A DNA stretch of 64,000 nt from Eledone cirrhosa (GCA_964016885.1 OZ024761.1:7626001-7690000); one strand, 5' to 3'. Counted from the first letter of the stretch, positions 7,126 to 53,500 are shown. Numbers and translations are program-made. Notes: a model not told the origin generated them from the letters alone.

Positions 7126-8664
7126 CACCTACACAACCATTCATTGAAACACATAGGCCTTGTATTTCATTGGAAATATTGTAACAAAAGGGTTTAAATT
7201 GTCTTTTTTCTGACCTAATGTTTTAATGACCCTCTAGTTTTCACATGTTGAAGCTGTTTCCTAACATGCAGCTTAAGGTCCGCTATTATACATTCCATCT
7301 ACATTATTGGTCCATGTTAGCTAGAAATATATTTAACAAACATGTTTACTACGTGAAAGGATATTTAATGCATACCAAACTATCTGGTTCTTCAAGTTAG
7401 CTAGACAATAGTTATATAATTATGTTAAAGTTAATATATATTTAACCCAGCCAGAACCAACTCTGTGTGTGTGTGTATCATCATCATCATCGTTTAACGT
7501 CCATATTCCACGCTTGCATGGGTTTGGACGGGAATTTTCCCACTTGAGGCAAGAGTGGTTGTCTTGCTCGCATAGGACTGTCTAGCTGGTTTTCTACGGC
7601 TGGATGCCCTTCCTAACACCAACCACATTTACAGTGTGGGTCTGGGAGGTTTTTACCGTGTTGCCTACACAGCCACATTACAGCGTGGGCTGTGTGTTTT
7701 TTTGTCGTGACACCTACACGACCTCATTTGTTTCGGGCTGGATGTTGTGACACCAACATAACTTTACATTGAAAGGGGTGGTGTGGATGGGGTGTGGGTA
7801 GTGGGATGGGGGTGTATATATATATATATATATATATATATATATATATATATATATATATATATATATATATATATATATATATATATATAAAATTAAA
7901 AGTGGAATTAAAGATCCACAATCATCCCCTATGATTTAATGGGCTCAAGTGATCTTATGGACTATTCACACCGCCATGGACGGTACATGTGCTTTCTCTT
8001 TTACATGTGTGTATTTTTAGTTATCTAATACACTTTGAGAAATGGAGTCCATATTGCTACGACATCCACCGATGAGCTATATTTCAGTATGTAAACTCCA
8101 CTTAAAATAGTGAAACACTCTAATTTGAACATGTCCAGATGTTATAGTTATAATTGGATGGTTAGTACACTTTAATATATTTTTTTAATTGATTTATATT
8201 CACCATTCCTTCCGTAGTTAATATGTTCTTCACACTGGTGGTTTTTGATCCCCTATGATTGAACACACTTCTCTCTGTGTACCTCTCTCTCTCTCTCTCT
8301 CTCTCTCTCTCTCTCTCTCTATATATATATATATATATATATATATATATTCAGATGATGGAACTTGGCCATTGAAATATGTATATATGTGTTTTTTTCT
8401 ATTATATATATATATATCATATATTAAATAGTTAAACAAGATTCAATGAGTACATCAAAGAATGAATTTTACAGTAGATTGGAAGCACTCTACAGAAAAA
8501 AATTATTTTCCAGTGTTATTAATATTAAAATACAAATATTAATAAAATAGATGTTCTTTTGATCAATTAAATTTTATTATACATATTTCAGAGGTACAAC
8601 AGTACGTCCTACTTTGATTAAATCTGAACCATTTAACATCTCAGGGTATGTCATGTTTCATTAT

Positions 8665-8717
8665 ATTTTGTCTGATGAGGACGTACTGTTGTATATCTGA
8701 AATATGTATAATAAAAT
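8665..8717 (+). ncRNA. Type I hammerhead ribozyme motif in fold-back element 8420-8766
   Basis: Stem I attttgt/ataaaat; core CTGATGA 8672-8678; stem II gga-c-gtac/gtat-a-tct; GAAA 8699-8702; loop tatgta; UA cleavage site 8709-8710. Confidence 0.75.
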
Positions 8718-8771
8718 TTAATTGATCAAAAGAACATCTATTTTATTAATATTTGTATTTTAATATATATC

Positions 8772-9390
8772 ATATCATCATCATCATCATCATCATCACC
8801 GTTTTACGTTCGTTCTTCCACGCTAGCATGGGTTAGACGGGTTGTCCTGTTGTGGGCAGTGTCTGGTCGGCTGACCATGCCTTGCTCATACAGGAACTGA
8901 TTTGGCTTGATTTCTACAGCAGGATGCCCTTCCTAACACCAACCTCATTTACAGTGAGTGCTGGGTGCTTTTTTGTGGCGCCTACACGTCCACTTTACAG
9001 TGTGGGCTGGGTGCTTTTTTGCCGTGGCACCTCCACGACCACCTTGCGGTGGGGGGTGTGGGGGCATATTGTCTATATGCTTCAGCTTGTACCCATGGGA
9101 GGTCGGGTACTCTGTATTACTGCGTGATGCCAGAGGTCACGGTCGTGTGTCATTGTCTTTGAGAGGTGTAATTGGGTAAGGTCGGCTTTTATCATCTCAT
9201 CCCAGGTCATCTTGGGTCTCCCCACTCCGCGGTTTCAATCGACTTCTAGTGCTCTGCATCTTTTTATGCAGCTGTCTTCCTTCATACGCATCACATGTCC
9301 ATACCAGCGCAACCGCCTCTCTTGCACACAGCATTTGATTCTTCTTATGCTCAATCTCTCTCTCAATTCGTTCATGCTTTGTCGTTCGCA
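8772..9390 (-). mobile_element. RTE LINE 3' fragment
   Basis: ERQSMNELRERLSIRRIKCCVQERRLRWYGHVMRM plus shared 3' UTR and (CAT)n on the + strand. Confidence 0.9.
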
Positions 9391-9564
9391 TATATATATA
9401 TATATAATAGAAAAAACGTATATATACATATTTCAATGGCCAAGTTCCATCATCCGATCATGACATAATACCTAGGAAACATCATCAGGTGTGGATTGCA
9501 TAATCAATAAAAGGAATTATGGCAAACACAAACAGAATAAAGAATATACTTGATTTCTATAAGA

Positions 9565-9960
9565 TAAAGTAAACAAACAGGCCCTGATTATGTATTCTCT
9601 ATCATAAATGTAAACACACAGGCCCTGACTATGCATTCTCTTACCTAAATGTAAACAAACAGGCCCTCACGGTGCATTCTCTACCCTAAATGTAAACAAA
9701 CAAGCCCCGACCATGCATTCTCTACCATAAATTACATCAATTATAGTGAAACTTTGTGGTGATACTTTCTGCAGAGGCAACACACTGCATTCAGTGACAG
9801 GCTTCATTGCCTGATAAGCTTGAAGATCAGAAACTATTGAAGTATAGGCCTCTTTGTGATAGGTTTGTCATTGAACTTATAGCGATGGAGACTTCTGGTG
9901 TTCTGTGTCACTGTATCAGCTCCCTACTAGCTGCTATTTTGATGGGGTTGGCCATCCTCA
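9565..9960 (+). mobile_element. Degenerate CRE-like (REL-endonuclease) non-LTR retrotransposon fragment
   Basis: CGDTFCRGNTLHSV../..DKLEDQKLLKYRPLCDRFVIELIAMETSGVL fits the REL domain pattern TC.DT...AE..K..KY..L...F.P.A.ET.G. The upstream ~43-bp repeats contain an RPD(G)-like aggccctgac. Confidence 0.6.
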
Positions 9961-50922: not shown

Positions 50923-50950
50923 GTATGAAAGGCCTCATTAGCAAGTCTCG
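50923..50950 (+). CDS. NCBP3: NCBP3 exon 9, 28-nt microexon (GMKGLISKSR)
   Basis: tttcag acceptor and gtaagt donor; completes NPNYG-GMKG.IS.S.K; phase 1/2. Confidence 0.9.
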
Positions 50951-51382
50951 GTAAGTATAAATATATATACACACAGACACACACACGCCTATATATATAT
51001 ATACATACGTACATACTTACTTATACATTCAAAGCTAGGCTTCACAGGAACAGAAAGATCACAACTAGTTAGGAAACTACAAGTACAATCCATTAATGGA
51101 ACAGTAAAAATATGTAAAACATTTCAAAAATTTTGCATCTAATAACTGCATATACATATGTACAGATACAAAGCATATATACACGCACACATACAACTCA
51201 AACCATACACATCCACACGTACAATAACATCCATACCTGCACATGCATGCATGCAGACATATCTACCTAGTTGATGTGTAAATTCCAATGAGAGAGTCTT
51301 GTGTCTATGTTAGAAACCGACTCTCTCTCTCTATTGGGAAAACTTTGTGAAATTATAAGACCAGAAGAACATACATACATAC

Positions 51383-51690
51383 ATGGTGGCTGCCTCTGCA
51401 TTATCGAGTATAGCCATTGCACGATATAACATTATTAGTAATTATCAAATAATTCTATCGGGCAATGCCTGTGCGTGAAGATATTTTTTAAAGTGAGGAA
51501 AGACTGTGCGCTGAGCCAATCCCACTCTCTGAGAGACAGTAGCTATAACCTGAAAAGAAGAAAAGATCAACATCATCGGTAACTACTGAGCCGCAGGTTT
51601 TATATCGGAGTTATCCCAGTTTCCTGAGTTGCCCTCTCCTAGAAGAAAGCCCTGACAAAGGCTAGGGGGTCCTTCACTCCCAGTGGTTTA
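51383..51690. repeat. Dispersed ~300-bp repeat, second copy at 60792-61092
   Basis: Both copies share tggctgc..ttatcgagtat..gccattgcacg..gagccaatcccactctctgag..ggtccttcac.cccagtggttta. Class not determined. Confidence 0.7.
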
Positions 51691-52930
51691 CATACATACA
51701 GACAGACAGTTGTCCCTCTGTATTCATGGGGGTTATGTTCCTAGAGAACCCGTGAAGAGTGTCCATACAAATGTCTATAAATGTCAAAACATAACATAAA
51801 ATATTGGCCGGCAAATACGGTTTATTGTTGTTGTTACTAATTTAGCGTTAAAAAGCGTGGAAAAATATATATTGCCATAAAAAAATCGCGGAAGATATTT
51901 ATGATTCTGCGAATATGCGGTGGTTTCCATGAACAATTATTAGTTGGGTTCTAAGGAAAATTCCGCTAATAACTGGGGCCACGAATGTCGGAGGTACACT
52001 ATATATATCATCATCATCATCATCATCATACGTCCACTTCTCCTTGCTTGCAAGGGTGGGATGGGTCTTATTCAGCACAGCATCTCTCCATTCGTCACGG
52101 TCCTTCGTCATCTCCTGTGACTTTCAGTGATCTAAGCTCAGCTCTCACCACCTCTACCCATGTTTTTTCCTGGTCTTCCTCTACTGCATCTTCCTTCCAC
52201 TGGGATATCTTGGCACCTCTTCATCCAGCTGTCATCTTCTGCAGCACATGGCCATACCGAAGCAGTCTTCTCTCCCGCACGCTACAGTTTATTTCTCTTA
52301 TACCCAGTTTCACTCTCAACTCGTCCATGCTTGGTCGTTCACGCACACTGACATTACACATCTATATATATATCATCATCATCGTTCTTATTTAACATCC
52401 ATTTTCCATGCTAGCATGAGTTAGATGGGTTGTCTCATTAGAGACAAGTTGGGTCTGGTGACCGTGTCTTGCTCATGTAGGACTGCTTCTGGCTAGATTT
52501 CTATGGCTGGATGCCCTTCCTAGTGTCTACCACATTTATAGTGTGGGTGCTTTTTGTTGTGATTCCTACTTAACCAATATATATGTAAATGTGGTTGCTG
52601 TTAGGAAGAGCATCCAGCTATAAAAATCCCAACCAAATTTACAGTTCCGTTTGAGCAAGGTACGGCACAGCCAGCTGGCCAGACTTGTCTCATGACGTGG
52701 CCGACACATCTAACCCATGCAAGCATGGAAAAATAGACGTTAAACGGTGATGATGATGATATATACATATATATCATCATCATCATCCCCGTTTAACATC
52801 TATTTTTCCATGCTTGCATATATATATATATATATGTATATATGCAAAAGGCAAACAAATAAAGCAAACAACACAATACAATGCAGAAATATATTATATT
52901 AGTTTTACACTTGATATAGTAGGGAAAGAG

Positions 52931-52966
52931 TCTTAATTTTTCGGATGCTAGTCCTTCATCAGAAGA
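52931..52966 (-). ncRNA. Minimal hammerhead-like motif
   Basis: Minus strand reads tctt CTGATGA a gga ctagca tcc GAAA aa TT aaga, within a TA-flanked AT-rich element. Confidence 0.45.
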
Positions 52967-53500
52967 AAGAATGAGAAATTAAAGAAGAAATAGAAAGATT
53001 GAGGAGGCGGACGGAAATGGAAAAACATTTTTTTTATATATTTATATATATATATATATATTGGAAAATGTGTGAAATCCTTGGTATAGTTAGGTATATT
53101 TGAAAAAAGGAAAAGAATGACTTCACTTGTAGTTCTAAACAATTTAATTTTATAATATTACAATTTTACAATTTAGCTATGTAGGTCTAGTAAGTTCTTT
53201 GTTATATATATATAACATTATACATAAGTAAATTTGTCACCAATATACATAACATCTTGATGAAAACAGATTGCTAGAATAAATCTCAGAGAAGCAAATA
53301 CATATAAAACATTTTCTACCAAATCGCCGAGTGGTATAGATTTTAACAATAAAGTAATCTAAAAAGAACACTTAACAAACATCTTTCCCTGGGGATACAG
53401 TCTTAGTTAAGCAACCTAAAGCTACAAGGTTTCAAGTTTGCTTGACTAAGTATATTATACTTTGGTTCTCTATTTTCTTCTCTCTCTCTTTGATCTGCAG

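Follow-up and report, generated by a model that had tools for sequence, protein, structure and literature searches.

We analyzed a 64,000-nucleotide stretch of the Eledone cirrhosa genome (GCA_964016885.1 OZ024761.1:7626001-7690000, hereafter "the window") and find that it holds 19 segments, about 4 kb of the 64 kb, that we read as ends of hammerhead-bearing Penelope-like elements (PLEs), many of them arranged as inverted, fold-back copies. The elements are very probably derived from PLEs, and we consider it probable that they belong to the Hydra clade of PLEs. Our preferred reading, to which we assign a probability of roughly 0.55, is that they are the 5'-truncated 3' ends of several PLE families, and that the fold-backs were made in one insertion, through priming of both nicked strands of the target. 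The class, its hammerheads, and the inverted layout have already been published, and the window adds further members. The single detail of these elements for which we found no published description is a hairpin at the end of the short arm: a literature search, with most subscription papers outside its reach, found no earlier description of PLE twin priming or of a Hydra tail hairpin.

Hammerhead motifs in the window

An original prediction, made from the sequence alone, had listed eight full type I hammerheads and two copies with only the 3' half of the motif. All eight CTGANGA cores are where it placed them (8672+, 9488-, 12829-, 15650-, 35511-, 35888-, 41419+, and 52962-), and both 3' halves (16125+ and 26640+) are found in the sequence. 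We searched the window with a type I descriptor (CTGANGA, GAAA, a stem III of at least 2 bp, UH, and a stem I of at least 4 bp), using 200 block-wise dinucleotide shuffles as controls, or 25 shuffles for a scored version. The descriptor returns 7 matches against a shuffle mean of 0.25 (maximum 2), and 5 matches against 0.07 when stem II is required. Six of the eight predicted motifs pass, and the other two, 9488- and 52962-, fail with 0 and 2 stem I pairs, respectively, in the register tested, and are decayed or doubtful. The match at 36213+ was rejected as a hammerhead: its 3' half is spurious, borrowed from the tail of a long interspersed nuclear element (LINE) inserted in an arm of family B. 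With the scored descriptor, exact cores give 6 matches against 0.04 (25 shuffles, maximum 1), an excess over shuffled sequence as the original prediction had expected. Cores with one mismatch (13004+, 15845-, and 46015+) give 3 matches against 0.04 at a score of at least 23; at the lowest threshold (score 17), this class gives 3 against 0.68, which is not significant.

Core conservation and stem covariation, which had been proposed as a further check, are also seen. In family A (five rows from three loci), both sides change in four of the seven stem II pairs, and 96% of the stem II cells are paired, against 29 to 61% with slid partners. For families C, D, and E, which lie side by side, the region 15492-16164 was matched at 80% likeness to four sequencing runs (X1 contigs, X10 reads, and two other organisms). 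Among the best-supported variants listed, beyond which there are 149 further rows, the family C core changes at N7 (15646, 66-84%), a change at 15638 (98%) turns a stem II wobble of family C into C-G, and changes at 15763 and 15764 (92-99%) give Watson-Crick pairs in place of two stem I wobbles of family E. In core, stem order, and covariation, the elements agree with type I minimal hammerheads of PLEs, and their motifs are predicted ribozymes.

Stem III is self-complementary to varying degrees: a full palindrome in families B and E, a wobble palindrome in two copies of family A, and partially so elsewhere. The G10.1-C11.1 pair occurs in only 1 of 10 cores, and stem II of 35511- opens at its base into a 3x3 loop without pairs. 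Families A and B (8692, 41419, 12829, and 35888) both have a C.C mismatch as the fourth stem II pair, and families E and G have a pyrimidine mismatch at a similar place. The reported (TA)n setting is borne out, with a (TA)5+ run at most 200 nt 3' of the predicted cut in eight of nine descriptor matches, against a background of 0.171; at 41419, the run comes after a Helitron-like end. Altogether, the descriptor, the shuffles, the family data, and the table of Hydra-clade families uphold the earlier proposal of a PLE origin, in several families, with minimal hammerheads that have a short self-complementary stem III, an inverted arrangement, and insertion into microsatellites.

A 91-bp tandem array (9874-12038, about 24 units) has CTGAGGA on the minus strand in each unit and raises naive motif counts. 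It was considered as a retrozyme and rejected: each unit has the motif, yet none passes the hammerhead fold.

Element copies, fold-back anatomy, and the tail hairpin

The elements had been described as mostly fold-backs; this is correct for six of the ten elements named, the other four being single copies. Family A is represented by three fold-backs. At 8417-8766, the full hammerhead is on the short arm (+; core 8672-8678, predicted cut after 8710), and the long arm (-) begins within the core and bears the tail, which reaches (TA)n at 8416. The two arms are identical at 87 of 89 positions, and the tail-less arm exceeds the tail arm by more than 30 nt on the 5' side. At 12745-13190, cores at 12829- (exact) and 13004+ (C3U) face away from a 3-nt loop at about 12916, with the long arm on the plus strand, its tail hairpin at 13108, and 165 of 166 aligned columns identical between the arms. 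At 41096-41507, the core at 41419+ is exact and the left-arm core is mutated, the loop (about 41355) is 7 nt, and the long arm is on the minus strand with its hairpin at 41180; the right arm is broken off before the Helitron-like end, and its natural end is hidden.

Family B forms a larger fold-back (35644-37036; core 35888-, palindromic stem III ATGATCAT), with a complex centre of 132 nt and two arms that continue differently on the 5' side. Its right arm consists of 36117-36231 and 36950-37036, the second part having been overlooked by the original prediction; between them, a 5'-truncated LINE end with a (TAA)n tail (36232-36949) is inserted into stem II. Family D has two fold-backs that are 92% alike over 100 nt. 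At 15975-16164, a 6-nt loop at about 16110 lies in stem II, both arms have only the 3' half of the hammerhead, the long arm is on the minus strand, the short arm ends at 16164, and the arms are identical over 55 of 55 positions. At 41625-41753, which had also been missed, the centre lies in stem III and the hairpin is at 41680. The centres of these two copies differ, and their short-arm and long-arm ends are the same. Family H (35352-35627; cores 35511- and 35532+) has no loop, its long arm is on the minus strand, and its arms are identical at 95 of 100 positions. Element K (30091-30210), another addition to the original set, has a 7-nt loop, a 3' half hammerhead, and a long arm on the plus strand with a hairpin at 30153. 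It was considered as a case of unequal 5' reach and dropped, its centre being symmetric.

The single copies comprise family C (15492-15700-, core 15650, predicted cut after 15616), with related ends at 39966-40097+, 42031-42175+, and 28574-28618+; family E (15715-15947-, core 15845 with U4C, palindromic stem III ACAATTGT); and family F (45960-46078+, core 46015 with U4A, U.U at the stem II base, 5-bp stem III), with a decayed copy, judged by eye, at 40120-40215-. The E and F cores and this relative of F are likewise new. Family G is present as a decayed copy (9406-9560-, core 9488, U.U at the stem II base, broken stem I) and as a fragment with only the 3' half hammerhead and (TA)n on either side (8351-8402+; 31 nt are 97% identical to 9427-9457), which shares its end point with the 9406 copy. 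Family J (26627-26775+), read by eye, has a 3' half hammerhead with stem III ACTAGT, and element I (52836-53042-, core 52962), which is doubtful or decayed, has a good stem II and weak stems I and III. Two copies were considered as starting at the ribozyme cut site and rejected as signs of cleavage: the one at 39966 abuts a LINE, and the one at 41656 has its fold-back centre in stem III.

All eight fold-backs (8417, 12745, 15975, 30091, 35352, 35644, 41096, and 41625) are head to head, with the hammerhead sense running outward from the centre. In agreement with the original prediction that one arm is longer, a 3' extension of about 60 to 140 nt is present on one arm only in all eight. The arms are 93 to 100% identical in the six fold-backs compared, and five of the eight centres are symmetric with loops of 0 to 7 nt, the other three being asymmetric. 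Secondary snap-backs of 12 to 15 nt occur within the centres at 35985-36116 and, in an animal metagenome contig described below, at L034:1810-1850; these suggest repeated template jumps.

Genome-wide, families C, D, and E are interspersed and high in copy, with fixed 3' ends and variable 5' ends. The region 15492-16164 is fitted by 27,497 X1 contigs, 100,118 X10 reads, and a few sequences from the two other organisms; summed depth is not copy number. Other family C copies run further 5' (loose ends at 15701 in 176 contigs and 4,239 reads), and the depth of family E falls toward the 5' side from about 210,000 to about 400. The depth of family D is flat over its full length, at 2.6 to 3.7 million summed word depth in X1. 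Family D also has many differing fold-back joints, and (TA)n is joined at 16052, the short-arm end, in 3,475 reads and 96 contigs. Several other D copies begin an arm at 16113-16117, in single contigs of organisms B and C the element runs on into a longer stem II loop, and eight of the D joints listed connect a tail-only arm to a hammerhead-bearing arm. Variable 5' ends and variable D junctions are what is expected of 5'-truncated insertions in which the inversion is made anew each time. The X10 read ends at 15562, 15755, 15769, 16105, 16114, and 16117 were rejected as element ends, all being on AATT and thus library restriction sites.

The tails contain a hairpin of the form RCTC...GAGY followed by RCY, for which family H gives the type example (35412-35387-), found by motif search and comparison of tails. 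It is carried by long arms only and starts 1 to 10 nt past the short-arm end (families D, H, K, B, and the 12745 copy); in the 8417 tail, its 5' side is degenerate. GAGYRCY occurs in six of seven long tails against 0.09 in 2000 shuffles, and the full hairpin pattern in four of seven against 0.012. For the seventh tail, 99% of the family's contigs have GAGYRCY, through 16024 G>C. Three of the seven long tails match GAGYRCY on the other strand too, because the motif is near-palindromic. A search with this motif turned up the eighth fold-back, element K. A 13-mer of the H tail has one occurrence in the window and none across 100 shuffles, and a 10-mer occurs twice in the 584,131-character Craig 2021 supplement, both times in Hydra elements, although line breaks may hide others. 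By eye, the hairpin is seen in three of six new Hydra consensi, in two 3' tails and, for Hydra-1_Ajap, at the extreme 5' start; the 3' end of this last consensus has no tail (PMC8557442 supplement). A shared hairpin beside the short-arm end likely marks a point where copying starts or stops.

Among metagenome contigs, the tail motif was found at 41 loci in 21 distinct contexts, none of the 41 with a full hammerhead upstream. We read 40 of them as chance, a comparable inverted repeat or enough flank being missing. The remaining one, L034, is an unrelated animal contig with open reading frames (ORFs) like those of G-protein-coupled receptors (GPCRs), and it shows the same anatomy (1 of the 21 distinct contexts among the 41 loci): arms of 54 nt, the 3' half of a hammerhead in the Hydra style, and a short arm that stops some 5 nt ahead of the hairpin, with an inverted-repeat score of 55 against at most 33 at the other loci. 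Two further short inverted repeats stand beside its GPCR-like ORFs (L034:1242-1397 and 510-702). In the window, a tail-like piece with 80% likeness to the tail of family B follows the end of a short interspersed nuclear element (SINE) at 13555-13660+; its second copy, at 22173-22248-, has the same SINE junction and is not independent. The tails were also considered as protein-coding (V-E-C on one strand, L-E-A-L on the other) and rejected: no Pfam match was obtained with 40 of 124 peptides scanned, and the frames are not kept. The apparent protein motif arises because it is the 3' side of the hairpin.

Possible routes to the fold-backs

Under our preferred reading, the template RNA would run from the hammerhead of the 3' untranslated region past the unit junction, and the first part of the following unit would form the tail. 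A dimer of the PLE protein (reverse transcriptase [RT] with GIY-YIG) would bind at the tail hairpin and nick both (TA)n strands. Priming of one strand at the distal tail end would then give the long arm, and priming of the other at the UA-containing unit junction just before the hairpin would give the short arm. Both cDNAs would stall early, often at hammerhead stems, and be joined head to head. The hammerhead would be copied through uncut; it would cleave poorly, either in dimeric form or when assisted by protein. The insertions continue across the predicted cut site, which points to uncut RNA as the template, and a hammerhead copied in this way is likely unneeded for insertion.

Two-strand priming is somewhat favored by the single tail in all eight fold-backs, the unequal reach of the 8417 arms, the 5' divergence of the family B arms, the eight family D joints, and the in vitro data for a Poseidon PLE (PMC11167929). 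In that system, both strands are nicked and extended, RT has two internal start sites, one on each side of the tail, and the hammerhead is protein-assisted, with its cleavage dispensable for insertion (PMC11167929). More tentatively, the hairpin, from corals and sea cucumbers to octopus, could be the cis signal at which a Hydra-type dimer primes both strands, with family D as SINE-scale mini-PLEs. If this were true, the hairpin as a two-strand priming signal would explain the PLE rule of an inverted copy plus one tail.

A close rival of two-site priming, which we regard as possible but rather doubtful, is snap-back with endonuclease resolution: cDNA primed from the tail end would fold back and prime itself, and the endonuclease would cut the resulting double-stranded intermediate at the TA just ahead of the tail hairpin, leaving the short arm. 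Self-priming was proposed in PMC3846280 and resolution mediated by the endonuclease in PMC8557442, and recognition of the tail by the Drosophila virilis endonuclease is cited within PMC11167929. It fits the five symmetric centres, two of which lie in natural stems II or III, the 93 to 100% identity of the arms, the small extra snap-backs at the B and L034 centres, and the near-palindromic GAGYRCTC, as a dimer's DNA site might be. It does not sit well with the tail-less arm of 8417-8766, which has 5' sequence missing from the tail arm, with B arms that diverge on the 5' side, with the common ends of single tail-less copies (families G and F), or with the in vitro use of both tail ends as RT start sites (PMC11167929). 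It is unlikely that some families, above all D, are instead independent non-autonomous PLE derivatives with their own template RNA of 150 to 300 nt, mobilized in trans like SINEs. The flat and very high depth of family D and the recurrent arm starts at 16113-16117 would suit such elements, non-autonomous PLEs are described in Chlamydomonas (PMC8557442), and cis sequences of pseudo-long terminal repeats (pLTRs) mobilized a host gene in trans (PMC3846280). However, summed depth is no measure of copy number, other C copies are longer on the 5' side, the depth of E drops steeply in the 5' direction, and single contigs of organisms B and C carry D on into the longer stem II loop. The earlier description of a non-autonomous population hence loses ground with 5' extension in C, falling depth in E, and varying junctions in D, and it keeps a possible short master for D.

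Non-LTR retrozymes, tandem hammerhead repeats that spread via self-cleaved circular RNAs, are a very unlikely explanation. They too have type I hammerheads in short ORF-less units, are known from molluscs (PMC7229834), and have been proposed to derive from pLTRs (bioRxiv 10.64898/2026.07.22.740005). However, a passing hammerhead is present in none of the 69 tandem-repeat rows of the window, and the units are single or head to head, with ends that lie in (TA)n 20 to 200 nt beyond the cut site instead of coinciding with it. With no hammerhead in any head-to-tail tandem array, the label "retrozyme-like" given in the original prediction is dropped. We consider it extremely improbable that these are chance motifs in AT-rich DNA or DNA transposons resembling miniature inverted-repeat transposable elements (MITEs). 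Inverted repeats in a TA context look like Tc1/mariner MITEs, and Rfam gave no hammerhead match; the shuffle controls, the stem II covariation, the unequal arms, the variable centres, and the fixed outer ends argue the other way.

Several points weigh against our preferred reading. The Rfam check that had been recommended found no hammerhead among 116 window matches at E<=5, nor in 15480-16180, and the stem II covariation in family A comes from three loci. None of the families was linked to a PLE ORF in the window or in viral and metagenome contigs, no family D pattern matched those contigs, no Pfam match was found among the 40 of 124 element peptides scanned, and no window family directly matches Hydra-1_Obim (PMC8557442). 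The tail motif was defined only after the tails had been viewed. The exact hairpin is absent from families C, E, F, G, I, and J, and from three of the six Hydra consensi (Hydra-1_Amil and Hydra-1_Obim, with looser forms in Hydra-1_Crog; PMC8557442 supplement), and the consensi compared are all from Hydra. As for two-site priming, the five symmetric centres with loops of 0 to 7 nt are directly explained by self-priming, the asymmetric centres may have arisen from palindromes by later deletion, and the small snap-backs in the B and L034 centres count against it. The D joints rest on 1 to 3 contigs, with 22 to 34 letters on the short side, and the in vitro PLE data come from another clade (Poseidon).

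One family A pattern match in viral contigs, inside a phage ORF (L001), was rejected as chance.

Genomic setting and relation to known elements

The window is animal DNA with a G+C content of 39% and abundant microsatellites, SINEs, and LINEs. A protein-domain scan and exon comparison place exons of the host gene NCBP3 at 17618-63784 on the plus strand; one exon has 96% identity to the Octopus sinensis protein and 94% to that of O. bimaculoides. Elements from 26627 onward lie within NCBP3 introns, and those at 8351-16164 precede the gene's first coding exon. The intronic fold-backs would give long double-stranded RNA in NCBP3 pre-mRNA, which would bury most cores and could be an editing substrate.

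The original prediction had stated that the window has no RT or GIY-YIG ORF. This holds for PLE-type RT and for GIY-YIG, neither of which was found by Pfam on 35 of 110 ORFs or by a six-frame motif scan, which gave LINE-type LYADD matches and chance matches and nothing else. It does not hold for RT as such: LINE ORFs with AP endonuclease and RT are present at 22555-25338+ (927 aa), which we take to be of the RTE type, and as fragments at 46381-47298-, 40552-41103-, and 14716-15492- (Pfam). A PHD finger, present in three copies, follows immediately after the RT domain of the LINE ORF (Pfam).

Other repeats include a head-to-head pair of tRNA-derived SINEs (60084-60779) with 347-nt arms that are 97% complementary and a short TA/TG run between them, and further inverted SINE pairs at 25583-26142 and 48806-50372. 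A GC-rich hairpin followed by CTAG occurs at 41575-41604, about 48545-48570, 27745-27775, and 57590-57635; these pieces resemble the 3' ends of Helitrons. MITE-like inverted repeats of 58 nt (16889-16946 and 17258-17315, 97%) enclose two histone-stem-loop-like hairpins and sit just 5' of the first NCBP3 coding exon. Further short pieces, enclosed by (TA)n and lacking a recognizable hammerhead, lie at 26404-26614, 41780-42017, 53062-53202, and 56900-57000, and a tail-like hairpin with no motif upstream is at 56985-. Rfam matches to hairpin miRNAs in the window were set aside as artefacts.

With the class, the hammerheads, and the layout published, the window elements are mostly ordinary transposon debris. 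For the formation of the inverted-plus-tail structure, the published candidates are self-priming, endonuclease resolution, and two start sites, and short abundant copies in which a hairpin fixes the short-arm end make it possible to mutate one defined element and to tally natural junctions in the thousands. Among the repeats of octopus, PLE ends with hammerheads appear to form an abundant class; a 2026 paper on O. vulgaris repeats reports 31 recently active PLE families, and the word "hammerhead" does not occur in its main text (PMC13282606).

Compared with known systems, the elements share with non-LTR retrozymes a short, non-coding unit and a type I hammerhead, whereas retrozyme units are tandem, head to tail (PMC7229834), and those here are single or inverted. 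The minimal hammerheads of PLE pLTRs (PMC4209133) occur as dispersed singles, read as truncated PLEs, and as opposite-strand pairs 100 to 700 bp apart, with low activity as dimers; palindromic stem III and many families per genome are further common features. In contrast to those, the G10.1-C11.1 pair is present here in 1 of 10 cores, stem III is longer, and two cores have U4 changes. Among complex insertions of endonuclease-bearing (EN+) PLEs, Arkhipova (2013) described inverted pLTRs with junction palindromes and a tail on one arm (PMC3846280), and head-to-head inverted ends, a junction palindrome, a one-arm extension, and a microsatellite target are all found in the window as well (PMC3846280, PMC8557442). 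Unlike those insertions, the window copies have no ORF between the arms and tails of about 60 to 140 nt rather than 30 to 40 nt, and their short end is tied to a conserved hairpin, which does not appear in the passages of PMC3846280 and PMC8557442 on this subject. Naiad PLEs of Octopus share the (TA)n target, inverted copies, and a tail, but are described without canonical hammerheads and as remnants in cephalopods, and the window has full motifs (PMC8557442).

Hammerhead style, (TA)n target, and the tail hairpin point to the Hydra clade, which has a (TA)n target, a hammerhead about 100 to 200 nt before the 3' end, a member in O. bimaculoides, and RWK, DKT, and CxCX5C as its defining protein motifs (PMC8557442); (TA)n insertion with a hammerhead near the 3' end is not exclusive to this clade. 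Hydra-1_Obim is given there without direct pLTRs or a partial tandem (PMC8557442 supplement); the window likewise has none, its copies being too short to show them. One Hydra-clade family has an inverted, 5'-truncated copy, and by our own tally 14 of 25 families have U.U at the base of stem II (PMC8557442 supplement). The window elements have in common with this clade the (TA)n preference, the hammerhead near the 3' end, the frequent U.U, a self-complementary stem III of 3 to 4 bp, and the tail hairpin that three of six Hydra consensi carry, and they differ from it in that several window families have a long stem II with C.C at the fourth pair.

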